Assembly: GCA_965203275.1 (NCBI GenBank)
Contig: OZ241865.1
Span: 340,581 to 404,580 of the forward strand
Length of the DNA stretch: 64,000 bases
Direction of reading: 5' to 3'
From: Bdellovibrionales bacterium
Lineage (GTDB): Bacteria > Bdellovibrionota > Bdellovibrionia > Bdellovibrionales > JAUICD01
Shown: one piece after another, positions 16,531-53,582 of the stretch
Numbering within the stretch: position 1 is the first letter of the stretch
How the letters are laid out: the number at the start of each line of letters is the position of its first letter
The notes under the pieces: generated by a model
Told to the model about the DNA's origin: nothing
The model's database searches: none
The model's input: the letters and a program-made list of their open reading frames with translations, nothing else
Position numbers and translations under genes: made by a program

Positions 16531-17350
16531 GTGACCGACGGTTCAGTGCCGTCGGGCTAACTACCTAGAAAATCCATTTATTTAATTCACTAAAAGTAAA
16601 CCAGCCTCTGGCTGTTTTTGGGCATTGGCTCACTAAAAGTGGTCTAGCCTCTGGCTACTTTCTGGTTGCCAGCCGAAGGCTATTCGCCTTCTCAAAAGCT
16701 GGCAACCTAGAAAGCTTGACCACTTTTAGTAGGAAGGAAACCTTCATTTCTTAACACCATGTTAAGGAAAAAGTTCTTTCTTACACCTTTTGGCTACCGC
16801 CGTCGATCAAAGGCTGATTGCCTCAAAAATCCGTTTACTTTTAGTAATGAGGATCCCTTCGTCTCTTTACACGATGTTAAGGAAAAAGTTCCTTCTGTTT
16901 CACTAAAAGTGGTCTAGCCTCTGTTTCCCTAAAATTGAACTAGCCTCGGCTACTTTTGGGCAGTTAGCCCGACGGCTACTGCCGTCGATCAAAGGCTAAC
17001 TGCCTAGAAAATCCATTTATTTTGAGTAGGGGAGGATCCTTTTTTCTCTTAACAGCATGTTAAGGAAAAAGTTCTTTTTGAACCCGCCAAGGGCTCAGGA
17101 GGAAATTTTTTAGATGCAAAAATTCATTACAATCAATGCTCTGATGCCGGTTTGCTGGATCCCGGATCCTGGATCCCGGATCCCGGTTCCCGGATCCCAG
17201 ATCCCGGATGAAAATCATGTTAGGGAAACAAGATGTTTATCGCAATGGCTTTCGCCATTGGCAAAATGGTCATTGCCTCAAAAATCTATACATTTTGAGT
17301 AGGGGAGGATCTCCTTGCTTTTTAACACCATGTTAGGGAAACAAGATATT
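16531..17350. repeat. intergenic palindromic-repeat mosaic (block D)
   Basis: Several palindromic modules, CTTAACAT modules and a GC islet at 17150-17210 (GGATCCCGGATCCTGGATCCCGGATCCCGGTTCCCGGATCCCAGATCCCGGAT). Confidence 0.9.
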
Positions 17351-17837: not shown

Positions 17838-18352
17838 TTCATTAAAAGTGGCCAGAAGCTGGTTTACTTTTAGTGAAAAGGAAATCAATAGAAGGAAATC
17901 TTTTTCCTTAACATTGTGTAGAGGAGTAAAAGGATCCTTCTCTACTCAAAATAAACAGACTTTTGAGACATTGCTCTTTTTGGACAGCGATAGCTGTCAG
18001 AGCAAACGTCAGAAGGAGATCTTTTTCCTTAACATCGTGTCAAAAGAGGAAAGGATCCTTCCTACTAAAAGTGGTCAGGCTTTTGAGGCAATGACCATTT
18101 TGTCAAAGGCGAAAGCCTTTGCGGTCATTGCCCAAGGTGTAAGAAGGAACTTTTTCCTTAACATCTTGTTAAAAAACGAGGAGATCCTCTCTACTAAAAG
18201 TAAACGGACTTTTGAGATAGCCAGCCTTTGATCGACGGTGAGAGCCGTCGGGCTGGCTATCCAAAAGTGACCAGAGGTCAGTTTACTTTTAGTGAAACAG
18301 AGGCTAGACCACTTTTAGTGAAACAGAGGCATGATTTATTTTGAGTGAAACA
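17838..18352. repeat. intergenic palindromic-repeat mosaic (block E)
   Basis: Same modules as the other blocks. It sits between the conserved block and the pilin start codon. Confidence 0.9.
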
Positions 18353-23499: not shown

Positions 23500-24857
23500 T
23501 TGCTCCTTAAAAACATTTTAGAAGTATATCTTGTTTCTTTAACATGGTATTTATCCGGGATCCCGGGATCTGGGATCCGGCAGTCAGGCAAGGATAAAAC
23601 GAACGCTTTCTTTCCTTAACATTTCACTCAAAATGAGCCACACCGCTGGTGTGTTTTTTGGTGTTGCCTGCAAAGGCTTTCGCCTTTGACAAAATAGGCA
23701 ACACCTAAAAAATCCGCTCATTTTGAGTAGAGAAGGATCCTTTTATTCTTTTACACCATGTTAAGGAAATTTTTCTTTTATTGTCTTTACAATGAAGGAA
23801 CTTTTTCCTTAATATTTCACTCAAAATGAGCCACACCGCTGGTGTGTTTTTTGGTGTTGCCTGCAAAGGCTTTCGCCTTTGACAAAATAGGCAACACCTA
23901 AAAAATCCGCTCATTTTGAGTAGAGGAGGATCCTTTTATTTTTTTACACCATGTTAAGGAAATTTTTCTTTTATTGTCTTTACAATGAAGGAACTTTTTC
24001 CTTAACATTTCACTCAAAATGAGCCACACCGCTGGTGTGTTTTTTGGTGTTGCCTGCAAAGGCTTTCGCCTTTGACAAAATAGGCAACACCTAAAAAATC
24101 TGCTCATTTTGAGTAGAGAAGGATCCTTTTATTCTTTTACACCATGTTAAGGAAATTTTTCTTTTATTGTCTTTACAATGAAGGAACTTTTTCCTTAACA
24201 TGGAGTTAAGGGACGAAGGGATCCTCCCTACTAAAAGTAAACGGACTTTTGAGGTAGCCAGCCTTTGATCGACGGCGGTAGCCGTCGGGCTGGCTACCCA
24301 AAAGTGACCAGAGGTCAGTTTACTTTTAGTGCAAAATAGAAGGTCCAAAAAGTAAGAATGATATATACAAAGAAATTGAAGTAAAAACAAATTTTAGTAG
24401 TGAGCGTCTAGCCGATCGCCTCAAAATTGACCTTTCGTTTCTCTGAAAAGGGCTTGACCTGGTGGATATATGAAATTAGAAATAGAATATTCAAGGAAAG
24501 GAAATTTTTCCTTAACATTTCACTCAAAATGAGCCACACCGCTGGTGTGTTTTTTGGTGTTGCCTGCAAAGGCTTTCGCCTTTGACAAAATAGGCAACAC
24601 CTAAAAAATCCGCTCATTTTGAGTAGAGGAGGATCCTTTTATTCTTTTACACCATGTTAAGGAAATTTTTCTTTTATTGTCTTAAGAGCAAGCTCAATGC
24701 AATGAAGGAACTTTTTCCTTAACATGGAGTAAAAAAATGAGGAGATCCTCCCTACTAAAAGTAAACGGACTTTTGAGGTAGCCAGCCTTTGATCGACGGC
24801 GGTAGCCGTCGGGCTGGCTACCCAAAAGTGACCAGAGGTCAGTTTACTTTTAGTGCA
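23500..24857. repeat. intergenic palindromic-repeat mosaic (block F) containing a 193-bp composite unit in tandem
   Basis: Track ORFs 23705-23914, 23898-24107 and 24091-24390 are offset by exactly 193 nt and nearly identical. A further copy lies at about 24500-24700. GC islet at 23555-23590. Confidence 0.9.
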
Positions 24858-24876
24858 AAATAGATAGAAGGTCCAA

Positions 24877-27153: not shown

Positions 27154-28344
27154 TTAGCTTAGATTGTTTAGTTTTTTCTGTATTTCTCGTATTTTGTTCT
27201 CTGTGGACTCTGTGATTTTTGCAATGGTTGAAATATCCATGTTATTTTTAAGCATTTTTAAGATAATATCTTGCCTACCTTCTTGCCTACCTTCTTGCCT
27301 ACCTTCTTGCCTACCTTCTTGCCTACCTTTCTCTCGGCCAATCTGAATGCCTTTCTCTTGGCCAATCTGAATGCCTTCTTCTCGGCCAATCTGAATGCCT
27401 TTTTTCATAGTTCCTTCTATGGTAAAATCAAATGCTTCCATAATATTTTCTCCTCCTAATTGTTGGGTCACTTCTTTTGAAGCTGATTGAACAACTTCTT
27501 TACTTAACTGATTATTGTACTGATAAAAATAAGTCATCGCTTTAGTGATGAGTTCTATTATATACTTTTTATCGGTACTTTGCGACACTTTTTTCACAAA
27601 TGAAAAAAATTTTATGAAAAAATCATGCTGTTCCTTTGTACTTTTTCTACTATCTAAAGACCAAATACCCTGAAATAAATGCAAAATAGGGCTGATCATT
27701 GAACCTTTTGCCTTCGCTTCTATATCATAAACCGATAGATCAAATGGTACATAAGAAAAATTCATAAGGTAAGGAGCAATAAGACTGCGAGAATGATCAG
27801 GAAAATAACCTTGAGATTCTAAGTAATCATGGAAAGAAATAGGCACTGTCCATTTTTTCATCCCGTGATAAAAAACAATAGGAATTACTGGATAACCATA
27901 TTTTTCATAGACTGTAGCCTGATATTTTAACAATTGTTTTAAGACATTATGGTCTGGCCAGCTTTTGTGTTCTAAGAGAAAGATAAATTTGACTGTTTTT
28001 TGAGAGTTTTTAAGGGTCAATGAAATAAGAAGATCTATTTGCATTTCTATACCTGCTATTAAAACATTCTTTTCTATTTTGAGCGAATCAAGGTTAAAAA
28101 GATTTAGAAATGCCTGAGAAAAAACAAGTTTTAGAAAAGCTAATATGTTCTCTACATTATCAAAAAATCTCTTGAAAGACAAGTCATGGACATGAGCTTG
28201 AGAAATAGCTTGTTGCCTTTCTTTTTGAGCTTGATTCTTAAGATGATTTTGTTTCACTTGATTCATTTTGCATAGAATAAACATATCTTGATGGAATGTC
28301 AAATACGTTTGTTTCATTGTTTCACTAAAAGTGGGCTGTTTCAC
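27154..28344 (-). CDS. Rpn/YhgA-like PD-(D/E)XK nuclease ('putative transposase') with C-terminal tandem peptide repeats
   Basis: HDLSFKRFF...IDLLISL....FIFLLEHKSWPDHNVLKQLLKYQATVYEKYGYPVIPIVFYHG fits the Rpn/Transposase_31 core. C-terminus has GIQIGREE/GIQIGQEK/GIQIGREK then (EGRQ)x5. The first 9-26 codons overlap an intergenic repeat, so the true start may be the Met at 28317 or 28266. Confidence 0.75.
   Translation of the reverse strand: MKQPTFSETMKQTYLTFHQDMFILCKMNQVKQNHLKNQAQKERQQAISQAHVHDLSFKRFFDNVENILAFLKLVFSQAFLNLFNLDSLKIEKNVLIAGIEMQIDLLISLTLKNSQKTVKFIFLLEHKSWPDHNVLKQLLKYQATVYEKYGYPVIPIVFYHGMKKWTVPISFHDYLESQGYFPDHSRSLIAPYLMNFSYVPFDLSVYDIEAKAKGSMISPILHLFQGIWSLDSRKSTKEQHDFFIKFFSFVKKVSQSTDKKYIIELITKAMTYFYQYNNQLSKEVVQSASKEVTQQLGGENIMEAFDFTIEGTMKKGIQIGREEGIQIGQEKGIQIGREKGRQEGRQEGRQEGRQEGRQDIILKMLKNNMDISTIAKITESTENKIREIQKKLNNLS
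27270..27401. repeat. in-frame coding tandem repeats: 12 nt x5 (27270-27329), then 24 nt x3 (27330-27401)
   Basis: CTTGCCTACCTT x5 encodes (EGRQ)5 on the minus strand. TCTCTCGGCCAATCTGAATGCCTT-like x3 encodes the GIQIGREx units. Confidence 0.95.
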
Positions 28345-29130
28345 TAAAAGTGGTCTAGCCTCTGGCTACTTTTGGGCAATGACCGCAAAGGCTTTCGCCT
28401 TTGACAAAATGGTCATTGCCTCATTTGATTTGCACTAAAAGTAAACTAGCCTCTGGCTACTTTTGGACATTGCTCTGACAGCTATCGCTGTCCAAAAAGA
28501 GCAATGTCTCAAAAGTCCGTTTACTTTTAGTAGGGAAAGATCCTCTTGTCTCTTAACATGATGTTAAGGAAAAAGTTCCTTCATTGTAACCCGCTTGCTC
28601 TTAAGACAATAAAAGAAAAATTTCCTTAACATGGTGTAAAGGAATAAAAAGATCCTTTTCTACTCAAAATAAATGGATTTTCTAGGTAGTTAGCCTTTGA
28701 TCGACGGCGACAGCCGTCGGGCTAACTGCCAGAAAACATGCCAGAGGCATGATTTATTTTGAGTGAAATGTTAAGGAAAAAGTCGTCCTCTTTCTACCGC
28801 CCACACACGGGCGAGGTTGGCTCACTAAAAGTGGTCTAGCCTCTGGCTACTTTTGGGCAATGACCGCAAAGGCTTTCGCCTTTGACAAAATGGTCATTGC
28901 CTCAAAAGCCTGACCACTTTTAGTAATGAGGATCCTCTCGTCTCTTAACCACATGTTAAGGAAAAATTTCCTTAACATGGTGTCAGAAGCAAGGAGATCC
29001 GCTCTACTCAAAATGAGCAGATTTTTGAGGCATTGCTCTTTTGGGACAGCGTGAGCTGTCAGAGCAATGCCCAAAAACACACCAGAGGTGTGGCTCATTT
29101 TGAGTGAAATGTTAAGGAAAAAGTCGTCCT
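28321..29130. repeat. intergenic palindromic-repeat mosaic (block G), abutting the distal end of the CRISPR array
   Basis: Same module family as the other blocks. Contains the orphan CRISPR repeat at 28790-28813. Confidence 0.9.
28790..28813 (-). CRISPR. orphan truncated CRISPR repeat (24 of 28 nt)
   Basis: CTTTCTACCGCCCACACACGGGCG followed by AGGTTGG instead of TAAC. The 29 nt to its left (GAGTGAAATGTTAAGGAAAAAGTCGTCCT, 28761-28789) are duplicated at 29102-29130 beside the first full repeat. Confidence 0.8.
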
Positions 29131-29881
29131 CTTTCTACCGCCCACACACGGGCGTAACATAATGAGGCTCTAACTAAAACCCTTAAAGTTCTTTCTACCG
29201 CCCACACACGGGCGTAACACGTTCCTAGTGAGACAATTAATGACGTTAAACTTTCTACCGCCCACACACGGGCGTAACAATTACCTCTCAGTGTAATATC
29301 CTCGTCCATTCTTTCTACCGCCCACACACGGGCGTAACAATTACCTCTCAGTGTAATATCCTCGTCCATTCTTTCTACCGCCCACACACGGGCGTAACAA
29401 TTACCTCTCAGTGTAATATCCTCGTCCATTCTTTCTACCGCCCACACACGGGCGTAACTTAAAGACGATGAGTTTAGGATTCAAGTGCTTGCTTTCTACC
29501 GCCCACACACGGGCGTAACTTAAAGACGATGAGTTTAGGATTCAAGTGCTTGCTTTCTACCGCCCACACACGGGCGTAACTTAAAGACGATGAGTTTAGG
29601 ATTCAAGTGCTTGCTTTCTACCGCCCACACACGGGCGTAACGAGGTACTCTAGTCATTGCTTCTTCTTTTACACTTTCTACCGCCCACACACGGGCGTAA
29701 CTCACACTCACTGCCAAAGTTGGCACACTTCTTCTTTCTACCGCCCACACACGGGCGTAACAAATTCTAAGAGAGTTTTGGAAAAAAGAAAAACTTTCTA
29801 CCGCCCACACACGGGCGTAACAAAAATCACATTGTAAGTGAAGATAGCCGGTTCTTTCTACCGCCCACACACGGGCGTAAC
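29131..29881 (-). CRISPR. CRISPR array: 13 identical 28-nt repeats and 12 spacers of 32-33 nt (8 unique)
   Basis: The plus-strand repeat CTTTCTACCGCCCACACACGGGCGTAAC starts at 29131, 29191, 29251, 29311, 29371, 29431, 29492, 29553, 29614, 29674, 29734, 29794 and 29854. In cas orientation it reads GTTACGCCCGTGTGTGGGCGGTAGAAAG: stem CGCCC/GGGCG, loop GTGTGT, 8-nt 3' tail. Confidence 0.97.
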
Positions 29882-29923: not shown

Positions 29924-30208
29924 TCAATTTATTTCTATTAAATGATTAAAAATACCTTCATCAGTTTGACGGCTCTTTAAATCACCAAAAACATAAGAGC
30001 GAAACCCTAAGTGATGAGTCCCATCAGACCATATAAACACCACTCTAAAATCTTCATTATTTTTTCTTAACTCTTTTAAAATATCTTCTCTAATACCATT
30101 TTTAGGCCAAACCCATACATCCATTGCAATTCTCCAGCAATATCTGCCAATGATCCCACGGGCTTTATGACTTTTTTCTTTTAAAGCATCATTAATAATA
30201 ACAATCAT
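29924..30208 (-). CDS. cas2: CRISPR-associated endoribonuclease Cas2 (I-E-like)
   Basis: 94 aa. MIVIINDALKEKSHKARGIIGRYCWRIAMDVWVW... parallels my recollection of E. coli Cas2 ([33 protein letters not shown]). ATGA overlap with the cas1 stop. Confidence 0.85.
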   Translation of the reverse strand: MIVIINDALKEKSHKARGIIGRYCWRIAMDVWVWPKNGIREDILKELRKNNEDFRVVFIWSDGTHHLGFRSYVFGDLKSRQTDEGIFNHLIEIN

Positions 30209-31077
30209 TTGCTTTCTTGCTTAAAAACTTCATTCAATGTTTTGACTAAATAATCTAAAACATCTATTCCTAAAACTAATTTCATAAACTGATTCTTTAT
30301 TTCTGTTAAACTCCACTCTTTTTTAACAGCAAGAAAAGACAACTCTAAAGCAATCACAGGTTTAACCACATCAGCGAGATCGTAAGACAAACCTCCTCCT
30401 TTTGTCCTGCCATGCAGTATGCCAATATTAGGATCATAACCTAAATGTAAAATTGTTAAATCTGCAAGTGAATAAGACAAAAAGTTTAAAAAAGTCAGAG
30501 GATCTTTTTTACCTCTATAAGGCTTTCCTCTTTTCACAAAAGGCACTCCATAATCAATAGCTAATAACTTATAAGCCTCTCTAGCCCATGCTCCTTCCTT
30601 TGCTAAAAGGGTATTAATATTGTCCCCTTCTTGAGCAGATGGAAATTCAAGTAATTTCACAGAAGAATATTTTTTTATAAAAGTAGCTCTCTTTTGAAAA
30701 AGAATCTTTGCAACATTTATTCTTCTTTTCTCATCAAATATGACATCATGTTGCCTGATACGAGGAGAAGGAGATCTATGCTGTGTAGAGCATAAATAAA
30801 GAGGAGCAGCATTCCCACCCATCACACCAATCAAGCAACCTCTCGATGAGATAATTCTCATAGATTCTGATGTGATACTTGTCCCTGGCCCTAAAAACAA
30901 CCCCCCTATTCCACACACAGGAATAGAATACTCCTCTTTTAAACCCTTCTTGAAAATTCTTATATCGTTATCCTTTCTCTTGATCTTACTATATTCTATA
31001 TAATAAAAAGGAATTCTTCTCGATAGAGGAATCAAGGGTTGTACTTCATCAATACTTATATACTTTCTTTTATTCAT
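30205..31077 (-). CDS. cas1: CRISPR-associated integrase Cas1 (I-E-like)
   Basis: 290 aa. LGPGTSITSESMRIISSRGCLIGVMG, EGAWAREAYKLLAIDYGVPF, PNIGILHGRTKGGGLSYDLADVVKP align with the Cas1e blocks [61 protein letters not shown]. Confidence 0.9.
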   Translation of the reverse strand: MNKRKYISIDEVQPLIPLSRRIPFYYIEYSKIKRKDNDIRIFKKGLKEEYSIPVCGIGGLFLGPGTSITSESMRIISSRGCLIGVMGGNAAPLYLCSTQHRSPSPRIRQHDVIFDEKRRINVAKILFQKRATFIKKYSSVKLLEFPSAQEGDNINTLLAKEGAWAREAYKLLAIDYGVPFVKRGKPYRGKKDPLTFLNFLSYSLADLTILHLGYDPNIGILHGRTKGGGLSYDLADVVKPVIALELSFLAVKKEWSLTEIKNQFMKLVLGIDVLDYLVKTLNEVFKQESK

Positions 31078-31094
31078 TTTTTAATTAACATATT

Positions 31095-33611
31095 TTATTT
31101 CTTTAAAATTTTTAATAAATCTTCTTTAACCAATCCAAACTTTTTATGATACACCCGATGCTCTGTTTTATTGTTATCTTGATCTTTGAGATGTTCTGAT
31201 AAGCATTGATTAATTTCTTCATCAACATGAGAACACAATAAAGGTCTCTCTAACTTAAAGCCATAAATCTTAATGTACTTATTAAATTCAAAAACTTCTT
31301 CACTATTATTGATTTGATTAGCCTTTTGACATTTACTTTTTGTTTCTAAACATACCCTCATAGCTTCTGTTATTTTTGTAATAAACCAGTCTCTACTTTC
31401 ACTGAGCAAACAGACTCCTTGCAATTGCTTGACTGGTTGGCCATCATCATCTACAACACAGGCACTTAAAAGCCGAGATTCCCCTCTAAATAAACTATTA
31501 AACACTTGTGCTTTTTTGTTTTTCCCTGATAAAGACCTTTTTGGAATATACTTATTCAAATCTTTAATAGCTTCTGTTTGTTGTCGCTCTAAAATTTCAC
31601 AAGATACTTTGATATTTTCATCAGTCCAAAAATTATCATAAGCTTTCATAAGATCTCTTATGGTGATAAAATTTCCATCCTGCTGTTGAATAAAATCTAA
31701 AAGATAACCCTGCCATTTTTTATGAATTTCTTGAAAATCAGCTTTTCTTTTATTAAAAAACTTTTCTGTCTCATCATTGTAGATAAAACATATCTGTGCA
31801 TCTTTTTTATTCTCAAATCGATTGATTCTTCCAGCAGTTTGACAGTCCGCATGAGGTTGCGATAATTCTACAAGAGCTTTTTGAAAGCTTAAGTTATAAG
31901 AAGATTGCAACATCTTTGATGTGATCACTGATTTGTCACTGATGAGTATCTTTTTTGATCCATGCTCTTGCAAAATAGATTCTAATAATTCTTTTTTATC
32001 CTCATCAGTGAAATAAGAATGAATAAGTTTTATTTGATCTGTCTGTGCTTTTAAAAGTTTAGCAAAAATTTCTTGGCTATTTTCTACTCTTAAAAAAGAA
32101 TACAAACAATCAGGTTTAAATGTATTGATTTTTTCTATTTTCATGCTTTGAGCAGAGATTTTAAATTTATGGTTCTCTCTGGCTGAAAGCTGATCTCTTT
32201 TAAAAACACAGCTATCTTCTACAGAGATGTATTTTAATAAAGAAGGGTCTGGTGTGCCACTCAACATCAACGTTTTAACTTCTGAGTGAAGCCAACGGCT
32301 CCTTATTGTGAGTATTTCTTTTAAAGCAGGGATCATTTTAGGGTGTTCTTTAAACTCATGGAATTCATCTAAAACCAAATGAGAGCGAAGCATCTTAATA
32401 AATTCAGAAGACTGGCTCCTCTTATAATAAGGGCTTAAAAACCTATCAAAAACCATAATATTAATATCTGAAGTTAAAAGCTCGCTACTTTTTTCTGCCT
32501 CCGGATTACAACGTTTTCTTTCTCCATTAAAAACACCTTCTATTTTGATATTATGATATTTACCATAAATTCTTTTACAATCTTCCTTAATGGAATAAAA
32601 CAAACCTGTCACCTGATGTTGTCTTGGCAAAGCTATGATCAATGGATGTTTATTTTGACAGTGATGCCACCAATAAAGAGCAATGCTGGTCTTACCTCCA
32701 GCAGGATCAACTCCACAAACAGCAAGTTTTTTATTAGACTTAGACATTTTATAAGCTAAATCATTTTGTTCTTTGCTCTTTGAGTTTTTATTAAGATTTT
32801 CCATAATATGAAATGGTAGCTTTTTTTCTGCAAAAATTGATTTTCTATCTTTCCAGTTTTGTAAAAACTCTTGAAGTTCAGTGATATCCCATAAAGACAC
32901 AGCTCTATCAGATTCAAGAAGTAAGTTAAGACAAATTTGTTTAAAGGCATTATCATAAACAGTTTCTGATTCGTGTTTGAAAAACTTAGGACATTGTATT
33001 TCTTCAATATCATCATTGGGTTCTTCTAAATCAGGTTTATTGCTATTCTGATCATACAAAGGAAAAGAATCAAAAAGCTCTTTAACAAACTTATATATAT
33101 TCTGTTTTATATTGTCTTCTTCTATTTTCTCAAATATGACTTTAGAATTTTCAAATCTTAATGTATCTTCTTTATCATTACAATTAGCAGGATGATGCCA
33201 ATAAACAGAATGACGAACAATATCTTTAATTTTTCCATTATTAAATCTTACAAAGTTAGCAATGTAGGCCCATGAAATTTCATTATGAAATGGTCCTTTA
33301 AAACTTTTTGGCCTAAAAGATTCAGCATCCATGGGTATCTCTTTGAAATCATCTTTGACGTTTGATTTGCTGTGAATATATTTTTGAAAATCTTTTGAGA
33401 CCTTCCCTATATCATGGAGCAGGCCAGCAGAGATCAAACATTTATTGAGTTGTCTTTCTTTATCAGGTTTGAAGTTTAATGATTTGAGCAGTAAGTGACC
33501 ATAAAGGGCTACAGCCATAGAATGCTCTTTTAAAGGTTGCCCTTTTGTGTTAGCTAATAAAGTGCTTTCATTATTTTTTTGCTTTTGATTCATTGTCTTT
33601 TTCCCAATCAT
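31095..33611 (-). CDS. cas3: Cas3 HD nuclease / SF2 helicase
   Basis: N-terminal HD motifs (HSMAVAL, LLHDIGKVSKDF, HNEISW, VYWHHP). Helicase motif I GVDPAGGKTSIAL, motif II LVLDEFHEF, motif VI QTAGRINR. The start may be the internal Met at 33593. Overlaps the upstream gene by about 40 nt. Confidence 0.9.
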   Translation of the reverse strand: MIGKKTMNQKQKNNESTLLANTKGQPLKEHSMAVALYGHLLLKSLNFKPDKERQLNKCLISAGLLHDIGKVSKDFQKYIHSKSNVKDDFKEIPMDAESFRPKSFKGPFHNEISWAYIANFVRFNNGKIKDIVRHSVYWHHPANCNDKEDTLRFENSKVIFEKIEEDNIKQNIYKFVKELFDSFPLYDQNSNKPDLEEPNDDIEEIQCPKFFKHESETVYDNAFKQICLNLLLESDRAVSLWDITELQEFLQNWKDRKSIFAEKKLPFHIMENLNKNSKSKEQNDLAYKMSKSNKKLAVCGVDPAGGKTSIALYWWHHCQNKHPLIIALPRQHQVTGLFYSIKEDCKRIYGKYHNIKIEGVFNGERKRCNPEAEKSSELLTSDINIMVFDRFLSPYYKRSQSSEFIKMLRSHLVLDEFHEFKEHPKMIPALKEILTIRSRWLHSEVKTLMLSGTPDPSLLKYISVEDSCVFKRDQLSARENHKFKISAQSMKIEKINTFKPDCLYSFLRVENSQEIFAKLLKAQTDQIKLIHSYFTDEDKKELLESILQEHGSKKILISDKSVITSKMLQSSYNLSFQKALVELSQPHADCQTAGRINRFENKKDAQICFIYNDETEKFFNKRKADFQEIHKKWQGYLLDFIQQQDGNFITIRDLMKAYDNFWTDENIKVSCEILERQQTEAIKDLNKYIPKRSLSGKNKKAQVFNSLFRGESRLLSACVVDDDGQPVKQLQGVCLLSESRDWFITKITEAMRVCLETKSKCQKANQINNSEEVFEFNKYIKIYGFKLERPLLCSHVDEEINQCLSEHLKDQDNNKTEHRVYHKKFGLVKEDLLKILKK

Positions 33612-34731
33612 ATTTTTTAAATTCTTTTATTCCTGCTTTTCTTAATTGATATATCTCTACAAAAATTGGATCTTTTGTCTCATAACCACGTCCCATTTCC
33701 TCAAGGCCATCATAATCCACAAAAACCACACCTCCTTCGCCCCATCTAGCTAGGTTTGGCCCTTGTTTGAACTTTTGGATCATATCTTCCCAAGCCGAGG
33801 AATTTTGGTTTTCTTCAAAAGCTTCTTGTGATAAATAAATATCAAAATCCACACAAGCAATATAAGCCGGTGTCCCCCTCACAACAGAATAATATTGTTT
33901 ATCTATCCATTGTTTGGTATTATTCAAATCAGTAAAAACACTAAATTTGCCATAACGAGATTTTTTTATTTGATCTAAAAAATCAGTATCTAAGTCACAT
34001 AAATGGCAAATTTTTTCTATCAGCTTTAAAACTTGTGTACTTATAGATTTTTCATCTTGTATTCTTTTTAAAGCTGTATTGATACCATCTTTTAATTTTG
34101 ATTGAGGGATTTTTTCATCTATAATTTGACTTAGTTTGAGTGCATCTTGTTTTAACTTTTCATATTCTTCTTTATTTTTCTTATATGTAATAACAGTTTC
34201 TTGAAAGAGAGAATAAATATTTGAAAGAGATAAAGACAAGGAAGCAGATTGTAATATCTTCACTAAAGGCTTTCCTAAAAGTTTTATTGTGGGATCCGCA
34301 TGTTCAAAAGGATGGTTATGGAGATTCACTTTAGGGTGATCAGAAAATTCAGATTTTTTATAATGGGTGTCTTTCCTTTCAAAAAAAGTCGTGATATGAG
34401 GTTCTGATATTTTTTTAATAGCTACTGTTTGTACTATGGCATCTAAGGTAGAATTAAGCTTTTGAATAGACGGCTTTTGACTATCTTCTATTTTCTTTAT
34501 CTTTTGCGTCTCCCCCATAAGGTAAGAAAATAATCCCTTGAGAGAACTCTCCCTGACAAGAGATAAGACTTTTTGAGAGCTATGTTTGGGGTGAGGAATT
34601 AATTTAATATCCTTTTCTCCTGTCTCTTGTGGTGGATAAAGAAATAATTTGCCAATTTTTATTCTCTCCCATGCTTTGTCTTGCCTGATATAAATACCGC
34701 CTGACCGGACTTTTAATTTAATGTATGACAT
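33571..34731 (-). CDS. Cas5-like Cascade subunit with a large helical insertion (candidate large-subunit substitute)
   Basis: GAGGA SD 6 nt before the ATG at 34731; the track ORF starts at a TTG at 34737. N-terminus YIKLKVRSGGIYIRQ....SSLKGLFSYLMGE resembles the Cas5e beta1 plus helix (YLILRLAGPMQAWGQ...TRSGLLGLLGACLG). The middle 200 aa or so are Lys/Glu-rich and helical. Family assignment is tentative. Confidence 0.5.
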   Translation of the reverse strand: MSYIKLKVRSGGIYIRQDKAWERIKIGKLFLYPPQETGEKDIKLIPHPKHSSQKVLSLVRESSLKGLFSYLMGETQKIKKIEDSQKPSIQKLNSTLDAIVQTVAIKKISEPHITTFFERKDTHYKKSEFSDHPKVNLHNHPFEHADPTIKLLGKPLVKILQSASLSLSLSNIYSLFQETVITYKKNKEEYEKLKQDALKLSQIIDEKIPQSKLKDGINTALKRIQDEKSISTQVLKLIEKICHLCDLDTDFLDQIKKSRYGKFSVFTDLNNTKQWIDKQYYSVVRGTPAYIACVDFDIYLSQEAFEENQNSSAWEDMIQKFKQGPNLARWGEGGVVFVDYDGLEEMGRGYETKDPIFVEIYQLRKAGIKEFKKYDWEKDNESKAKK

Positions 34732-34733
34732 AA

Positions 34734-35666
34734 TCAATCCTCAGTTACTTCTTTAAATTCTTTGAAAAAATGATGAAATTCTATCTTACTTAATTCTTCT
34801 TTCAGTTTAGACTCTTCAGCATCTATTGTATCTTCACCATCAAAAAAAGAAACTTTAAGTGATCCCTTTTGATAAGCTAATCTGGATCCTGCTTTTAACC
34901 CATGAATACTACGTATTCTTAGAAAAACAACTTTCACAAGGTGCCTTATTTGTTTTTGATTCAATAAAATCCCCTCTCTTGGAACTTTATAAATAGCATC
35001 TTTGTCAATGTATTTTTTGATTTCAAGAGCAGAGTCGACACCATGTTTTTCAAAATACTCTTTAAGAAGCTCTAAACATTTATCTTTATCTTTTTTGTTG
35101 ATCATAGAAAAATCGTTATCTACCCCATAGAGAGATAAAAATTGAAGCTCTTTAAGATTTATCCCACCTAAAAGCTTTTGTTTCCTATAGGGCAGGTTAT
35201 CTTTTGAAAACATGGACGTATCACTTTTATCTTCACCCTTTTTATTTTTCTCTTTTCCTTCTTTTGGCTTAGAACTACTCCCTTGATCAAAAACAATATC
35301 TAAATGATCAGTAGTTACCGCATCTGCTATATGTAAAGGAGAACATTTTTTAAATCCATCATCGGGTGATAAATAACCTCTTAAAAGCCCTACTTCTGAG
35401 GCTACCATTTCAATAAATTTATCAGCAAAAATTTTATTTGAAGGTTGTCTGGGTTGAAGGTCTTTAAATATCTCATGCCTCAAACAACGCGAAGATGTGT
35501 AATCTTTTCTTCTCTTTTGACTTTGATCTACATTTTGAATTTCAGTGAAAGTCTTTGCACACAAATGATTCTCATGTCCATCTCTTTTACCAACTTTGTT
35601 GTAATTATAGACACCCCAAACATCTAAAAGACCTTCAAAGGTAATAGTTTTAATTGATTGACTCAT
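34734..35666 (-). CDS. cas7: Cas7 (Cascade backbone, RAMP)
   Basis: AAGGAGG SD. DYTSSRCLRHEIFKDL matches the Cas7 motif (.S..slR...r). KCSPLHIADAV resembles the second conserved strand. 310 aa, a typical Cas7 size. Confidence 0.7.
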   Translation of the reverse strand: MSQSIKTITFEGLLDVWGVYNYNKVGKRDGHENHLCAKTFTEIQNVDQSQKRRKDYTSSRCLRHEIFKDLQPRQPSNKIFADKFIEMVASEVGLLRGYLSPDDGFKKCSPLHIADAVTTDHLDIVFDQGSSSKPKEGKEKNKKGEDKSDTSMFSKDNLPYRKQKLLGGINLKELQFLSLYGVDNDFSMINKKDKDKCLELLKEYFEKHGVDSALEIKKYIDKDAIYKVPREGILLNQKQIRHLVKVVFLRIRSIHGLKAGSRLAYQKGSLKVSFFDGEDTIDAEESKLKEELSKIEFHHFFKEFKEVTED

Positions 35667-35677
35667 AATAATCCTCC

Positions 35678-36235
35678 TTATTTCATTAAAATTAATCCAT
35701 AGCCGTAGGATTTTCTAGATCCTACGCCCTTACTTAAAGCTTGATTGAATTTATGATGATCTAAAATATGAAATTTTCCCTCAATGCTAAAAATATTGTG
35801 AATAGTAAAATAAATATCCTTTTTATCTTCTCTCCGAGGTCCAAGAAACTGACAGGATACCTGATCTCCCTTGAGACCTGTCATAAAGCAAAACTTCTCT
35901 AAGGCTTTATCTTGGTTTATTTGAGGATAGATGTTTTTTTGTCCTCTTTTATTTTCCGGAATAATATTTTTTTTGTGTCTATTGCAAAACGAAACATGAG
36001 TTTCTAATGCCACTGTCTTATCATCCTCATTGATTAGACTCATTTTTTGAGTGCTGTGATGTAATGGTTTAGCAGGTGGAAGTGTGGAAAGAACATACAG
36101 CAAATCACCTTGAGACAGTGACGGACAGATATTTTGAGGAGAATTAAATAACTCTCTAATCAATGAATGAACAGAAGAATAACCAGCTTCAAATAAAGAA
36201 AAACAATAAATATTTACTTGATTTTTCAATGTCAA
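35678..36235 (-). CDS. cas6: Cas6 endoribonuclease (Cas6e/CasE-like)
   Basis: 185 aa. TTG start 5 nt after GAGG. C-terminus IFSIEGKFHILDHHKFNQALSKGVGSRKSYGYGLILMK parallels E. coli CasE VCFEGVLTINDAPALIDLVQQGIGPAKSMGCGLLSLAPL (glycine-rich loop). Confidence 0.75.
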   Translation of the reverse strand: MTLKNQVNIYCFSLFEAGYSSVHSLIRELFNSPQNICPSLSQGDLLYVLSTLPPAKPLHHSTQKMSLINEDDKTVALETHVSFCNRHKKNIIPENKRGQKNIYPQINQDKALEKFCFMTGLKGDQVSCQFLGPRREDKKDIYFTIHNIFSIEGKFHILDHHKFNQALSKGVGSRKSYGYGLILMK

Positions 36236-36741: not shown

Positions 36742-38141
36742 GAGCTTGTCCCTGATATCGGTGAAAATAGACGGCTCATAAATTAGTTTTTAATTGTTTT
36801 TTCTTTTTGTCAATAATAATTTTTTTTAAACTTTGTTCTAATTGTTCTAAATCTTTAAATCCTTTAATGCTTTTGAAATGTTTTTCTGCTTCCAATAGAC
36901 TCACAGCAGACCATCTTAAAACTTGATCTGAAGAAGAACTCCAATTCTTTACCCTCCGAACTTTTTCCCTCACAACTGAAAAAACAGACTCAATAGGATT
37001 TGTCGATGATAATGACCTCCTTAAAAGTAATGAAACTCCAAGCTTGATCGTTGTCAGTGTCTCCATCTCTGCCTCTTTTAAAGATGTGAATGCTGAATGA
37101 TTGACCCGCTTTAACCAGCTTAATAAAGACTCATGCTCTAACTTCGATGACAACTCATCTGGCATACCATGTAACTTCTTCCAACGACTCTTAAACTCTA
37201 TGTGACGACTTGGAGGTAAGCAACTCAGAATATTTCTCTCTTTATGCTGAATACAACGCTGAACTACTGAACGACCTGAAAATACTCTATCTATTCCCTT
37301 CCTTAATGCTTTGCTACCATCAATCACAAAAAGATAACCCTTCTCTTTATCAAGACCACGACCTATAAGTCCCTCCAGAAGATCACGGCAAACTTCCCAA
37401 CTCTCTGTATTGCCTTCTTTAAGACCTAATATAACCTTCTTACCTTGATCTGTGATTCCTAAGGCCACTATAACCAGCGTAGAACCAATACCCACTCCAT
37501 CTATCATTATCGCTGGAAACCTGTACTTACTTAAATCACGATTGTTAATCGACTCAAGGGCTTGTTTAGATGACTTATTAAAAACTCTACTCACACTACT
37601 CCTAGAAAGTTTAAGCCCTCCTGAAATATCATCTAAAAGATGATTGTAATTCCGTGATGAAACTCCACTCATGGCATGTTTTAAAACACGATCACTGAGT
37701 ATGTCATAGTGTTGAAGGGCTGAATAGATCTTAAGCCTCACTTCACGACCTGACTGCTTAACACGAGGCTTCCTAACCTGCAACTTTTGACCACCTGCAA
37801 GTATGCTACCTTTATCACTACCAGCTCTATGATATGGTGTATCTCTATGACGACCATAACGCTCACCGCAAAGCTCTAATAGCTCTGCTTCAAAAAAACC
37901 ATAGACCGAACAAAGAATAGATGACTTGATCTCATCCTCTACAATCTGACGAATTTCTGACAAAGTATTGGCTGAAACTTGAAATGAATGACTATTTTTG
38001 GTACACTTCATAATGGCTCCTTTCTTTTTATTTTTAAAAGTTAATTGTTAATAAAATTTGGTTGGCTGAAATATGCCAACCAGGAGCCTTCTATCTTAAC
38101 ATCTTCTCTAAGAAAAATTCACCGAATTATAGGACATGCTC
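36742..38141 (-). mobile_element. IS256-family insertion sequence (1400 bp) with imperfect terminal IRs and an 8-bp target-site duplication
   Basis: Left end GAGCTTGTCCCTGATATCGGTGAAAAT versus the reverse complement of the right end GAGCATGTCCTATAATTCGGTGAATTT (about 19 of 27 matches). Direct repeat ATTTTTAT at 36734-36741 and 38142-38149. Confidence 0.85.
36776..38011 (-). CDS. IS256/Mutator-family transposase
   Basis: 411 aa. AIMIDGVGIG...VIVALGI, LFVIDGSKALRKG, VQRCIQHKERNIL, NPIESVFS are typical DDE Mutator-family blocks. Confidence 0.9.
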   Translation of the reverse strand: MKCTKNSHSFQVSANTLSEIRQIVEDEIKSSILCSVYGFFEAELLELCGERYGRHRDTPYHRAGSDKGSILAGGQKLQVRKPRVKQSGREVRLKIYSALQHYDILSDRVLKHAMSGVSSRNYNHLLDDISGGLKLSRSSVSRVFNKSSKQALESINNRDLSKYRFPAIMIDGVGIGSTLVIVALGITDQGKKVILGLKEGNTESWEVCRDLLEGLIGRGLDKEKGYLFVIDGSKALRKGIDRVFSGRSVVQRCIQHKERNILSCLPPSRHIEFKSRWKKLHGMPDELSSKLEHESLLSWLKRVNHSAFTSLKEAEMETLTTIKLGVSLLLRRSLSSTNPIESVFSVVREKVRRVKNWSSSSDQVLRWSAVSLLEAEKHFKSIKGFKDLEQLEQSLKKIIIDKKKKQLKTNL

Positions 38142-39713: not shown

Positions 39714-40994
39714 TTATTCTGTAGCTCCGGCCTCTTGCAATAACCTTGCAATTTCAGTACGGTTATGTCCACTAGATTGACGTCTAGTAGTCCATAATAA
39801 AGCCGTACGGCCATTATTGTCTTGATGATTGACGTTAGCTCCGGCCGCTATCAATAACTTTACAATCTCTACATGGCCTCTATCACTAAAAACATTTCTT
39901 ATCCAGTCTATAGATTCGTTATAATGATCGATTGAAGACACCACTATTGGATACTTTCCTTTCTGTAGGAGTCCATTAACAGCATGCATTAAAGGTGTCT
40001 CCCCATCTGCATTTGCTCGATTGACGTTAGCTCCGGCCGCTATCAATAGCTTTACAATCTCTGTATGGCCCCACTTACTAGCCAGCAATAAAGCTGTCTC
40101 GTCCTTCTTTGAGAAATAACGCACAAATCGACTTCTAATGTTTGGATCGGCTCCAGCCGCTAGCAATAACTTTACAACCTCTGTATAGCCATCCTTACTA
40201 GCCCACATTAAAGCCGTATAGCCACCATAGCCTTGATAATTGACGTTAGCTCCGGCCGCTATCAATAACTTTACAGATTCAATGGTTTCAAGCATGAAGG
40301 GAGTCTTGCCACTAGCATACATTAAAAGTGTATTGTGGGTTTTGTCCACCGGCATATTAACATTCATACAAGTACTTTTTAAAAATAGCTTTAAAATTTC
40401 TGTATTTTTGACAAGGGACTTTCTAAACAAAGAATACCCTTTATAAGAAACCTTGTTATTATGTATAAAACCACCCTCAGAGTCTCCAGCCTCGTCCTCT
40501 TTAGTATACGAAAGACTACCAGGGTCTGCTCCGGCCGCTAGCAAATTCTTTATACCCTCTATATCACCATTAATAACAGCCTGTTTTAAATTTGCACGAC
40601 CATGACGAGGCCTGCAAGTGTATGTTGTTGGAGTTGGTCTTAAAACTACCTGTGGAGCTGGAGTTGGTCCTGGAATCAGAGTTGCCGTTGGTTCTGGAAT
40701 CCGATCTGGAGTTGGTCCTGGAATTGGAGCTGTAGATGGTCCCGGAGTTGGAGATGGTCCGGGAGTCGGAGCTGGAGTTGCCGTTGGTCCTGGAGTCGAA
40801 GTTGTAGATGGTCCTGGAACCGGAACTGGAATCGAAGCTGGCTTTTGTTCTATTTGAGAACTGGACGTCTTACTGTCAAAACGGCTTTTCGCACAGTTGT
40901 TAAAACTGAATACCAAACAAGACAAAATAAGCAATGCTAACGATAAATAAGCAAGCCTTTTTTTAGATTTTAGATTTTTAAACATTTTAAACAT
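39714..40994 (-). CDS. ankyrin-repeat exported protein/lipoprotein; paralogue of 19602-20726
   Basis: Signal anchor ..LALLILSCLVFSFNNC. Pro/Thr-rich linker (PVPVPGPSTTSTPGPTATPAPTPGPSPTPGPS), then ANK units with HTEIVKLLIAAGANVN. The last codons and about 40 nt of 3' flank are near-identical to the other gene. Confidence 0.85.
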   Translation of the reverse strand: MFKMFKNLKSKKRLAYLSLALLILSCLVFSFNNCAKSRFDSKTSSSQIEQKPASIPVPVPGPSTTSTPGPTATPAPTPGPSPTPGPSTAPIPGPTPDRIPEPTATLIPGPTPAPQVVLRPTPTTYTCRPRHGRANLKQAVINGDIEGIKNLLAAGADPGSLSYTKEDEAGDSEGGFIHNNKVSYKGYSLFRKSLVKNTEILKLFLKSTCMNVNMPVDKTHNTLLMYASGKTPFMLETIESVKLLIAAGANVNYQGYGGYTALMWASKDGYTEVVKLLLAAGADPNIRSRFVRYFSKKDETALLLASKWGHTEIVKLLIAAGANVNRANADGETPLMHAVNGLLQKGKYPIVVSSIDHYNESIDWIRNVFSDRGHVEIVKLLIAAGANVNHQDNNGRTALLWTTRRQSSGHNRTEIARLLQEAGATE

Positions 40995-41094: not shown

Positions 41095-42219
41095 AATGCA
41101 TAGATTTTTGAGACAATGACCATTTTAGTGACCATTTTATTGACAGCGTGAGCCGTTAACGTTTTTCCGGGATCCGGGATCTGGCATCCGGCAACCGGCA
41201 ACCCGGGATCCGGGATCTGGGATCTGGGATCCGGCAACCGGCAACCCGGGATCCGGCAGTCAGGCATCAGGCAACAGATCCCGGAACCCGGAATGCCTGC
41301 TTGCCTGATCCCGGATCCCGGGACCCGGGATCTGGGATCTGGGAACCGGCAACCCGGCATCAAAATGACTTTTTCCTTAACATGTAGTTAAGAGATGAGG
41401 AGATCCTCCTTACTAAAAATAAACGGATTTTTGAGGCAATCAGCCTTTGATCGACGATCCTTTTATTCCTCTACACCATGTTAGGGAAACAAGATATTCG
41501 AGAGCCGTCGGGCTGATTGCCCAAAAACAGCCAGAGGCTGGTTTATTTTTAGTGAAACAACTCCTTAACATTGTGTTTATCCGGAATCTAGGATCCGGGA
41601 TCTGGCAACCGGCAACCCGGCATCAGAAAGAACTCTTTTTCCTTAACATGGTGTCAAAAAACGAAGAGATTCTTCCTACTAAAAATAAACGGATTTTTGA
41701 GGTTGCCAGCATTTAAGAAGGCGAATAGCCTTCGGCTGGCAACCCAAAAGTGACCAGAGGTCAGTTTACTTTTAGTGAAACAAACTCCTTAACATCGTGT
41801 TTTTCCGGGATACGGGATCAGGAAACCGGCAACCCGGCATCAGAAAGAACTCTTTTTCCTTAACATGGTGTCAAAAAACGAAGAGATTCTTCCTACTAAA
41901 AATAAACGGATTTTTGAGGCAATCAGCCTTTGATCGACGACGAAAGTCGTCGGGCTGATTGCCCAAAAACAGCCAGAGGCTGGTTTATTTTTAGTGAAAC
42001 AACTCCTTAACATCGTGTTTTTCCGGGATACGGGATCAGGAAACCGGCAACCCGGCATCAGAAGGAAATCTTTTTCCTTAACATGGTGTCAAAAAACGAA
42101 GAGATCCTCCTCTACTCAAAATAAATGAATTTTCTAGGCAGTTAGCCTTTGATCGACGACGACAGTCGTCGGGCTAACTGCCAGAAAACATGCCAGAGGC
42201 ATGATTTATTTTGAGTGAA
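41095..42219. repeat. intergenic palindromic-repeat mosaic (block H) including the largest GC-rich islet (41166-41360)
   Basis: CCGGGATCCGGGATCTGG / GGCAACCGGCAACCCGGGATCC oligo-repeats, followed by at least four palindromic modules and CTTAACAT modules. Confidence 0.9.
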
Positions 42220-42349
42220 AATAATACAAACTATAAGAAAAATTTATGCATAGAGGATTTTTTATTTTACATACTTCATTTATTATATTATGACTTTTTT
42301 AAAATTAAAAACAGCAATTCAAACATAACAAAAACAGGAGGATTAAAAT

Positions 42350-52895: not shown

Positions 52896-53032
52896 TCAGA
52901 TATGTTTCATTTTGAAACATACTCATTAAGAATGATCTTTGATTAAGTAAGAAATATAATAAGAAATAAGAAATAGTTTGCTGGTGGATAAATTATAAAA
53001 AAAGGCTAAATACCTAGAAAACCCTTTATTGC

Positions 53033-53078
<46 letters not shown>

Positions 53079-53204
53079 AACCTTTCAGTGAAATTTGTTG
53101 TCATAAATAAACCACCTTTCACTATTATTATCGGCTAAAATACTTTTACCACTTTAATTTTATTTAAAATTTAGGCTTTTGTCTTACTTAAAAGCATGTC
53201 TTGT

Positions 53205-53572: not shown

Positions 53573-53582
53573 TTATTGCTGA

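Follow-up and report, generated by a model that had tools for sequence, protein, structure and literature searches.

The type I-F2 (I-Fv) systems, arranged as cas1-cas2/3-cas7fv-cas5fv-cas6f, assemble a Cascade in which the helical domain of Cas5 reads the PAM and wedges the duplex in place of Cas8, while Cas5 also helps to position Cas3 and the role of Cas11 is filled by the wrist loops of Cas7 and not by Cas5 (PMC12956352). The described structures are those of Cas5fv from Shewanella putrefaciens CN-32 (5O6U, 5O7H, 9G44), whose helical domain is PF20158. Type I-E systems consist of Cas8e, Cas11, Cas7e, Cas5e and Cas6e, and their Cas5e is only about 225 aa long and is without a helical insertion.

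The locus described here lies in a window of 64,000 nucleotides, the whole stretch of contig OZ241865.1 that was analysed. Gene X (33571..34731, minus strand, 386 aa) is read, with a probability of roughly 0.7, as the Cas5 subunit in a minimal Cascade of type I that has neither Cas8 nor Cas11 and is a divergent relative of type I-F2. By comparison with I-F2, its helical domain probably takes over target-DNA recognition from the large subunit that the locus lacks. The system is a rare, previously unannotated I-F2 relative from Bdellovibrionota-type MAGs.

Gene X and its operon

ORF calling and translation placed the ATG of gene X at 34731 and its stop codon at 33571-33573, and confirmed the predicted ORF as real, with the peptides quoted for it (YIKLKVRSGGIYIRQ, SSLKGLFSYLMGE, YYSVVRGTPAYIACVDF and LARWGEGGVVFVDYDG) all within the translation. 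The minus strand had been left unstated in the original prediction. An alternative in-frame TTG is located at 34737, two codons 5' of the ATG, and a Shine-Dalgarno sequence (GAGGA) lies 6 nt ahead of the ATG. The gene starts 2 nt after the end of the cas7 stop codon, to which gene it is translationally coupled, and its 3' end overlaps the start of cas3 by 41 nt. A search of 5.8 billion protein clusters returned 35 homologues at E<=1e-39, and the family comprised 31 cluster representatives with identity down to about 23% and invariant motifs. As the same cas neighbourhood also surrounded the homologues in every context inspected, gene X is not a chance ORF. In the loci compared there was one copy per locus, adjoining cas7 in the effector operon. 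X was the least conserved cas protein among the related loci (45-48% identity compared with 57-89% for the others), and on these sequence comparisons it appears to be the fastest-evolving cas gene, with the helical core as its fastest-evolving part. Such rapid divergence is in keeping with a subunit that works where host meets virus and is exposed to PAM choice and anti-CRISPR pressure.

The operon is tightly packed in the order cas6-cas7-X-cas3-cas1-cas2-CRISPR, all on the minus strand. The cas7 gene (34734..35666, 310 aa) encodes a Cas7fv-like backbone protein for which Cas7fv was the best and only NCBIfam family matched (6e-30, 104.6 bits against a cut-off of 200), and the assignment was repeated with PADLOC Cas7fv (5e-22), the PDB chain of Cas7fv 5o6u_C (7.8e-10) and a precomputed PF28157 Cas7fv-like match. 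The protein was about 31-32% identical to Cas7fv of I-F2 (32% to that of Legionella). The cas6 gene (35678..36235, 185 aa) encodes a Cas6e-like endoribonuclease that matched Cas6e-type profiles only (PF08798, 33 bits against a cut-off of 25; PADLOC Cas6e, 1.3e-8), had no similarity to the Cas6f of I-F2 loci and is not Cas6f/Csy4. An IS256 element is located directly upstream of cas6 in the window and is missing from the sister assembly. The cas3 gene (31095..33611, 838 aa) encodes a Cas3fv-like HD nuclease and helicase that is not fused to Cas2; PADLOC Cas3fv matched at 3.3e-55 over profile positions 100-922 of 951, and the protein was 27% identical to I-F2 Cas2-3 in an alignment beginning past the Cas2 domain of the latter. 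When searched against 72,556 plasmids, cas7 and cas3 found I-F2 loci only. Cas1 (30205..31077, 290 aa) belongs to the I-F/I-E clade (NCBIfam Cas1e 5.7e-33, Cas1f 1.5e-32), and its best matches among the same plasmids were annotated Cas1f, I-F2 plasmids included (1e-29). Cas2 (29924..30208, 94 aa) is stand-alone and was matched by PF09707 (E 1.2e-4, just under cut-off) and PADLOC Cas2 (2.9e-5). The scores of all components fall short of the curated I-F2 cut-offs.

No cas8 or cas11 was found in the window or in the related loci (L001, L002/L005, L006-L009, L011/L012), as had been predicted for this locus. The accompanying statement that X sits in the expected place of a large subunit was imprecise, since X follows cas7, which is the exact site of cas5fv in I-F2.

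The CRISPR array (29131..29881, minus strand) consists of 13 identical 28-nt repeats (GTTACGCCCGTGTGTGGGCGGTAGAAAG) and spacers of 32-33 nt, some of them duplicated, with its leader on the cas2 side. A degenerate terminal repeat (ACCTCGCCC...) is located at 28790..28817 on the minus strand in a duplicated trailer segment. The repeat has a 5-bp stem and a 6-nt loop that leave an 8-nt 5' handle, GUAGAAAG, and is kept in related loci with variation in the loop. This geometry is that of the canonical I-F2 repeat, with the UAGAAA handle core in common. Searches with the array spacers found no protospacers. All ORFs are intact and the array of the sister assembly contains one additional spacer at its leader end, and from these sequences the system looks live.

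Fold and domain organization of X

X had no match among Pfam, NCBIfam and PADLOC models, the Cas5 and Cas8 profiles of these collections included, or among PDB sequences. The NCBIfam Cas5fv equivalog HMM matched neither X nor any of 25 relatives at E<=1, and PADLOC matches among these relatives were weak and in single members (Cas5b 1.6e-3, Cas5fv 0.032, Csm3 8.6e-4). In the AlphaFold2 model (pLDDT 81.9, pTM 0.58) strands were predicted at 3-15, 44-57, 104-116, 289-301 and 327-339 (327-330 and 334-339) and helices through about 124-275, so that beta strands at both termini flank alpha helices, in agreement with the beta/alpha ends and helical middle originally described. A Foldseek comparison of the full model with the PDB gave Cas5fv of the Shewanella type I-F2 Cascade as the sole significant fold match, with 5o6u_F at the top (E 1.7e-5, prob 1.0, 407 aligned columns) and 9g44_B second (E 2.8e-3), followed by type IV-A3 chains and then Cas7e, all at E>0.06; no Cas8 of any subtype was among the matches. 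Cas7fv accounts for chains C and F of entries 5O6U/9G44, which leaves Cas5 as the identity of the 336-aa and 331-aa chains. Global superposition of X and Cas5fv was poor (TM 0.27-0.30, rmsd about 15 A), and the Foldseek match is a local 3Di/aa score probably carried by the RRM halves.

Pairwise alignment of X and Cas5fv detected no similarity (E 8), while hhalign placed X 52-141 on Cas5fv 42-130 (E 4.8e-4) and, with RRM-only profiles, reached E 7.8e-5 at a probability of 62%. The profile-profile probabilities were just 32-62% over 35-86 columns, and what was recovered is the Cas5 alpha-1 motif only. This motif (SSLKGLFSYLMGE in X) aligned gap-free with Cas5fv, with G66 and G73 of X at the invariant G56 and G63 of Cas5fv. 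In the family alignment of the glycine-rich loop, GPxxAxWGEGG, P325 and G334 were invariant and G324 and E332 nearly so. As modelled, X thus has the RRM/ferredoxin-like fold and C-terminal glycine-rich loop of a Cas5, and the Cas5-like assignment in the original prediction was upheld by the fold match and the alpha-1 motif.

Model strands, hhalign and conserved columns define the N-terminal RRM/palm half (34369..34731, minus strand, aa 1-121), which includes beta1 (VRSGG), a variable disordered loop at 19-39, the alpha-1 motif and an invariant FFERxD at 116-121. The inserted all-helical domain (33877..34368, minus strand, aa ~122-285) was delimited by a domain-only model and by the position of Cas5fv_helical. 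The C-terminal RRM half (aa 286-345 by model strands), which holds the glycine-rich loop, and the tail occupy 33574..33876 on the minus strand; the tail of about 45 aa is conserved (LRxAGxKxKKYDWE) and canonical Cas5fv has no such tail. The parts of X measure 121, 164 and 101 aa and those of Cas5fv 110, 156 and 71 aa in the same order, and the insertion point in X is collinear with that of PF20158, which covers Cas5fv 111-266 and is of similar size. A helical insertion is present as predicted, although it spans about 165 aa rather than 200, since residues 78-102 fall in the Cas5fv-aligned half of the RRM. The Lys/Glu/Gln richness ascribed to the middle is not specific to it (26.1% compared with 27.5% N-terminally and 27.7% C-terminally); its distinguishing marks are low Gly (1.8%) and high Leu. 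Nor did the heptad-like character point to an extended coiled coil, as the modelled helices are 21 residues or shorter and form a compact bundle.

When modelled alone the helical domain gave a confident structure (pLDDT 88, pTM 0.82) that had no fold match in the PDB or BFVD and no 5O6U/9G44 match at E<=10. Its hhalign comparison with Cas5fv was not significant (E 0.35), and PF20158, which scores 229 bits in canonical Cas5fv, was found in 0 of 25 family members even at E 10. Nothing that resembles the domain in sequence or fold emerged from these searches, be it the helical domain of Cas5fv, a Cas8, a Cas11 or any other protein. The domain is basic (net charge +5), is the least conserved region of X, and carries an extra expansion of about 110 aa in eight homologues. 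It may be an extremely diverged form of the Cas5fv helical domain or a replacement for it. The suggestion that an internal start supplies a Cas11-like product was not borne out: across seven loci no position within the helical region had a recurring pair of Shine-Dalgarno and start codon, and the sole recurrent pair was formed by the GEGG codons (GAAGGAGG) at residue 338, from which a product of at most 50 aa would result.

Proposed role and alternative readings

On the model of I-F2, the RRM of X would cap the 8-nt 5' handle of the Cas6-processed crRNA beside the first Cas7, and the helical domain would reach over the PAM duplex, read the PAM and wedge the strands apart, replacing Cas8. The Cas7 backbone would guide the displaced strand and, together with Cas5, recruit the stand-alone HD-helicase Cas3. 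The PAM-reading role is proposed purely by positional analogy. The most conserved motifs of X flank the insertion, FFERxD on one side and FSxFT...T(K/R)xW...VRGxP (263-288) on the other; by collinearity we infer that these junctions are the counterparts of Q113 and K253, the PAM-contacting residues of Cas5fv, and the motifs are assumed to be close in space. Because Cas7, Cas3 and Cas1 are I-F2/I-F-like and the insertion point is collinear, shared ancestry with I-F2 is the most parsimonious source of the Cas8-less layout, which speaks against the independent origin raised in the original prediction; a weaker form, replacement of the domain, survives, as no resemblance to the helical domain of Cas5fv was detected.

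That replacement is a tentative alternative, in which an unrelated domain displaced the Cas5fv helical domain or entered the same permissive RRM loop in an independent insertion and serves the same function. The confident domain-only model without counterpart and the negative profile searches are in its favor, as is the tolerance of the domain for large indels. Cas7 and Cas3 of locus L011 are 26% and 25% identical to those of the window, as distant as those of canonical I-F2 (31% and 27%), and despite that distance the X of L011 is clearly homologous to the window X (E 5e-16) where Cas5fv is not (E 8). However, the insertion is collinear with that of Cas5fv and similar in length, all-alpha domains diverge fast and Foldseek is weak for repacked helical bundles, the helical core evolves fastest within the X family, and it is more parsimonious that the Cas7fv/Cas3fv lineage lost Cas8 just once. 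It is possible, if doubtful, that the whole locus represents an unclassified Cas8-less type I lineage at the variant or subtype level, sister to I-F2, that kept or regained a nuclease of the Cas6e type along with separate Cas2 and Cas3 and whose Cas5 carries a structurally novel helical module non-homologous to that of Cas5fv. If true, Cas8 would have been replaced a second time, independently, at one and the same insertion site, and the PAM would probably be read by a different chemistry.

It is unlikely that the helical domain acts mainly in a Cas11-like or Cas3-docking capacity, stabilising the R-loop and guiding the non-target strand within X or as a separate product while the PAM is read elsewhere. 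The locus is without Cas11, the domain is basic and I-F2 Cas5 aids Cas3 positioning (PMC12956352), but neither a Cas11 fold similarity nor a recurrent internal start in the helical region was found, and in I-F2 the wrist loops of Cas7 take the Cas11 role. There is little to recommend X as a Cas8-type large subunit reduced in size or as what is left of a Cas8-Cas5 fusion, with the 5' handle capped differently. Its 386 aa fall between the sizes of Cas5 and small Cas8 proteins and no Cas5 profile matches it, yet the two leading Foldseek matches are Cas5fv and none is a Cas8, X carries RAMP hallmarks (beta1, the alpha-1 motif and the glycine-rich loop), and the order cas7-X is that of cas7fv-cas5fv. 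We know of no type I Cascade entirely without Cas5. A decaying or inactive relic in which X drifts is the least probable reading. The IS256 element next to cas6, the duplicated spacers, the missing protospacers and P0036, an X-Cas3 fusion without HD domain from another metagenome, would agree with decay, whereas all six cas ORFs are intact and tightly overlapping, relatives about 23% identical to X keep its motifs unchanged, the operon is kept in several MAG lineages, and the sister assembly, without the IS, has gained a leader-proximal spacer.

Comparison with described type I systems

A Cas5 subunit related to Cas5fv remains the preferred reading of X, and the analogy with Cas5fv drawn in the original prediction was apt with respect to the Cas5-like fold, the helical insertion and the absence of cas8 and cas11. 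Both proteins are split RRMs with a collinear helical insertion of about 160 aa, and both are encoded directly 3' of a Cas7fv-type gene in a locus without cas8 or cas11. The crRNAs are alike, with a 28/32 repeat-spacer pattern and a UAGAAA-type 5' handle. X is longer (386 aa compared with 337 aa), has the additional conserved tail and a variable N-terminal loop, matches neither PF20158 nor the NCBIfam Cas5fv model, and has a helical domain with no detectable likeness to that of Cas5fv in fold or sequence.

At the level of the system, the locus shares with type I-F2 a three-protein Cascade (Cas5, Cas7 and Cas6), 28-nt repeats and 32-nt spacers, and its Cas7, Cas3 and Cas1 are closest to I-F2/I-F counterparts. 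The Cas2-Cas3 fusion is a hallmark of I-F, whereas here cas2 and cas3 are separate with cas1 between them, and the Cas6 is Cas6e-like where that of canonical I-F2 is Csy4 (PF09618 at 1e-55). The order here is cas6-cas7-cas5-cas3-cas1-cas2 with the array past cas2, and the hosts are Bdellovibrionota-type MAG chromosomes, in contrast to the gammaproteobacterial mobile elements that carry I-F2. Type I-E has in common with the locus the Cas6e-type signature, a stand-alone Cas3 with an N-terminal HD domain, a stand-alone Cas2 and an array downstream of cas2, but the locus is without Cas8e and Cas11, and its Cas7 and Cas3 were not detectably I-E-like among plasmids.

The cas operon and its CRISPR array

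The window encodes an I-F2-like system that lacks Cas8 and whose Cas5 is highly divergent. The cas genes and the array were tightly packed on the minus strand and included a Cas6e-like gene (cas6, 35678-36235; PF08798 above cut-off), cas7 (34734-35666) with Cas7fv as its sole family match (6e-30), the gene for the divergent Cas5-like protein, hereafter X (33571-34731), cas3 (31095-33611) with HD and helicase domains (PADLOC Cas3fv, 3e-55), cas1 (30205-31077) of the I-F/I-E clade, a stand-alone cas2 (29924-30208) and a CRISPR array of 13 repeats (29131-29881). Alignment of cas3 to PADLOC Cas3fv began only at profile position 100 and a Cas2 domain is therefore lacking. There was no trace of cas8 or cas11 at the locus, nor space for either. 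Rfam gave no match at the locus and only one tRNA in the window (1703-1775), and a promoter scan was at background with 35 sites against 33 expected.

The array repeat (GTTACGCCCGTGTGTGGGCGGTAGAAAG) folds into a stem of 5 bp, after which comes a tail of 8 nt (GUAGAAAG), the future crRNA 5' handle. The twelve spacers comprised only eight unique ones, two of which, 33 nt (CAAGCACTTG...) and 32 nt (AATGGACGAGG...) long, each occurred in three tandem copies. The sister assembly L001 had four and three copies of these, respectively, plus an extra leader-proximal spacer (AACGCCTGAG...). The tandem copies are either real duplications of repeat-spacer units or assembly slippage. The one additional spacer in L001 points to a recent acquisition at the cas2 end and is a sign of CRISPR activity. 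The array trailer was duplicated 341 nt downstream (28727-28813 and 29068-29154). Each copy comprised a terminator-like hairpin and a repeat, and the repeat of the distal copy was degenerate. The duplication accounts for an orphan degenerate repeat at 28790-28817.

Approximately 540 nt upstream of cas6 was an IS256-family transposase (36776-38011, minus strand; NCBIfam 2e-56), which was absent from the otherwise 98-100% identical L001, indicating a recent insertion with a possible effect on the promoter of the cas operon. A family of repeats, each 140-370 nt long and 76-100% identical, was dispersed across the window including both CRISPR-cas flanks (approximately 5127-5503, 10198-10501, 16625-17071, 18022-18299, 23611-24859, 28341-28904, 41311-42220 and 52593-53575) and may be MITE-like elements. 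A minus-strand gene (39714-40994) encoded a 426-aa protein with a signal, a Pro/Thr-rich linker and several ankyrin repeats, and an ankyrin-repeat gene was also located next to the related locus L002. Such genes are unusual for free-living bacteria and fit a predatory or host-associated lifestyle.

Domain layout and identity of the Cas5-like protein

The X reading frame of 386 codons was confirmed and lies on the minus strand, with a Shine-Dalgarno sequence (GAGGA) 6 nt upstream of the ATG, a gap of 2 nt from the cas7 stop codon and an overlap of 41 nt between its 3' end and the start of cas3. All peptides quoted in the original prediction were found in its translation. An AlphaFold2 model built from 35 homologues (pLDDT 81.9, pTM 0.58) had strands at residues 3-15, 44-57 and 104-116, then at 289-301 and 327-339, and helices only (residues ~124-275) between both strand sets. 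A helical insertion had been expected and was present, with a modelled size of ~165 aa (~122-285) and not ~200 aa. Its reported Lys/Glu/Gln richness was not specific, at 26-28% in all three parts of X, and the longest modelled helix had 21 residues, which makes the insert a bundle and not a coiled coil. Conserved columns included VRxGG in beta1, SS-h-x-G-h-h-S-Y-L-x-G-E in alpha1, FFERxD, FSxFT...T(K/R)xW...VRGxP, DFD and GPxxAxWGEGG. Between the first strands is a ~20-aa loop (…WERIKIGKLFLYPPQETGEKD…; residues 19-39, window 34615-34677) that only part of the family possesses and that was predicted to be disordered (pLDDT 33-39).

Profile searches gave no Pfam, NCBIfam or PADLOC match for X, and 25 relatives were likewise without a usable match. 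BLASTP against a canonical Cas5fv from a Legionella plasmid found no similarity, and an iterated search with a broader profile of X retrieved 41 proteins, all unannotated, with no bridge to Cas5fv. Ras GTPases matched by the close-family profile among PDB sequences (E 0.01-0.07) were noise inflated by many near-identical Ras entries; with the broader profile these matches were gone and nothing else was found.

Structure comparison identified X as Cas5-like. The best Foldseek match of the model in the PDB, and the sole one below E 1e-3, was 5o6u_F, Cas5fv of the Shewanella I-Fv R-loop complex (E 1.7e-5, probability 1.0, 407 columns), followed by 9g44_B (E 2.8e-3), the Cas5fv chain of the I-F2-Cas3 structure from 2026, with all others above E 0.06. 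The window Cas7 matched 5o6u_C and 9g44_F, which are Cas7fv, so that the 336-aa and 331-aa chains are Cas5. A profile-profile comparison of X with 22 canonical Cas5fv sequences aligned X 52-141 collinearly with Cas5fv 42-130 (E 4.8e-4; E 7.8e-5 and 62% probability with inserts removed), centred on the Cas5 alpha-1 motif and placing the nearly invariant G66 and G73 of X on the invariant G56 and G63 of Cas5fv. Pfam Cas5fv_helical (PF20158) spans residues 111-266 of the 337-aa Cas5fv. Based on this span and the profile alignment, both proteins have an RRM half, a ~160-aa helical insert that begins at the aligned position, and a second RRM half.

An internal start yielding a Cas11-like product had also been proposed. 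Internal starts with an SD-like sequence in X were limited to a weak AGGA+GTG pair at V157 and to two GTG codons, 335 and 338, which stem from the GAAGGAGG codons encoding the GEGG loop. In a comparison of seven loci, SD and start pairs in the helical region never shared a position; the sole recurrent internal pair was at residue 338, with a product of at most 50 aa. The helical domain fold was not Cas11-like, and the proposal was not supported.

Family distribution and origin of the helical domain

Thirty-five close relatives of X (44-100% identity) were found among 5.8 billion protein clusters, and searching all 1.84 billion representatives with HMMER gave a family of 31 proteins down to ~23% identity. 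None carried a Pfam annotation and the sole named relative was a 'hypothetical protein'. The close-family profile led to four MAG loci, and the hosts were MAGs labelled Bdellovibrionales or Bacteriovoracaceae. Every retrievable context, including those of the most distant members, featured a Cas7fv-like gene, X and cas3-cas1-cas2 in this order, with a Cas6e-like gene close by. Eight members (P0010, P0014, P0015, P0016, P0018, P0020, P0021 and P0022, e.g. L008:8001-9485) were 467-500 aa long owing to an additional ~110-aa Lys/Glu-rich insertion inside the helical domain, which is an expansion hotspot. In the metagenomic P0036 (1010 aa), residues 1 to ~350 of X were fused in frame to a Cas3 lacking its first ~200 residues (HD nuclease domain); it is either a nuclease-less deletion derivative or an assembly artefact.

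X was the fastest-evolving cas gene in the family, with 45-48% identity between the window and loci L005-L008 compared to 63-66% for Cas7, 57-65% for Cas3, 56-65% for Cas6, 78-83% for Cas1 and 82-89% for Cas2. The helical core (151-262) was its least conserved segment, with a mean pairwise identity of 39% against 62-78% in the RRM parts.

The X insert is probably a diverged ortholog of the Cas5fv helical domain (probability about 0.6), which is moderately likelier than its replacement by another domain. The neighbouring genes favour inheritance with I-F2, as the window Cas7 was 32% identical to Cas7fv, Cas3 was 27% identical to the I-F2 Cas2-3 over 649 residues starting past the Cas2 domain, the matches of both among 72,556 plasmids were confined to four I-F2 loci, and Cas1 had its best matches to Cas1f, also on those plasmids. 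Several results nevertheless leave room for replacement as the less likely alternative, among them the fast divergence of X and of its helical core and the ~110-aa expansions. The helical domain modelled alone (pLDDT 88, pTM 0.82) had no significant match in the PDB or BFVD, Cas5fv included, its hhalign comparison with Cas5fv was null, and PF20158 matched no family member. Moreover, the Cas7 and Cas3 of the related locus L011 are as far from those of the window as are the I-F2 proteins, and the L011 X was still recognisable (E 5e-16) whereas Cas5fv was not.

Proposed mechanism and relation to type I-F2

The analysis established where X lies in the operon, its predicted fold of Cas5 type, the lack of Cas8 and Cas11 and a repeat hairpin of Cas6 type with its 8-nt handle. 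The mechanism is modelled on the I-F2 structures (PMC12956352). X would cap the crRNA 5' handle, its helical domain would span the PAM duplex and wedge it open, and Cas7 would guide the displaced strand and, with Cas5, dock the stand-alone Cas3. Cas5fv probes the PAM with Q113 and K253, residues positioned at both junctions of its helical domain (PMC12956352). The most conserved X motifs, FFERxD (116-121) and the 263-288 block, are located at the same two junctions and are candidate PAM and wedge residues by analogy. No protospacer turned up in four viral and two metagenome scans for five spacers from the window, L001 and L002/L005, using patterns wild-carded at every sixth position except for that of a twice-acquired related spacer, wild-carded at two variable positions. 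A PAM could therefore not be derived. Together, the window and L001 have nine unique spacers, none of which matched any other part of the window when up to six mismatches were allowed.

No description of this arrangement was found in the searchable literature, setting aside an unnamed 'I-F variant intermediate between I-F1 and I-F2' mentioned for a figure of Makarova et al. 2025. The Cas8-less concept is already known; the lineage, the mosaic architecture and a helical module without a structural relative are new. Type I-F2 is valued because no type I effector is more compact and because it is the one case of Cas5 in the Cas8 role, and the effector genes here total ~2.65 kb, making this a second candidate compact Cascade with a possibly different PAM. 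As current annotation profiles miss this Cas5, such loci are typed as incomplete or orphan. The family also offers an evolutionary test case for the turnover rate, or swapping, of a PAM-reading module and is relevant to the order of events, namely whether Cas8 was lost before or after the Cas2-3 fusion and Cas6f arose.

The Cas8-less design extends past the canonical gammaproteobacterial I-F2 to Bdellovibrionota-type genomes, where the architecture differs: the nuclease is Cas6e-like, and Cas2 and Cas3 are unfused. In contrast to type I-F2 members, the system has neither a Cas2-3 fusion nor Cas6f, and X was missed by the Cas5fv profile and the helical-domain profile. Its Cas7 scored under the equivalog cut-off, with Cas7fv as the sole family match. 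A canonical I-F2 repeat (GTTCACTGCCGTATAGGCAGCTTAGAAA) shares the 28/32 geometry and the UAGAAA handle core with the window repeat. The system is related to I-F2 and, by analogy, would act like it.
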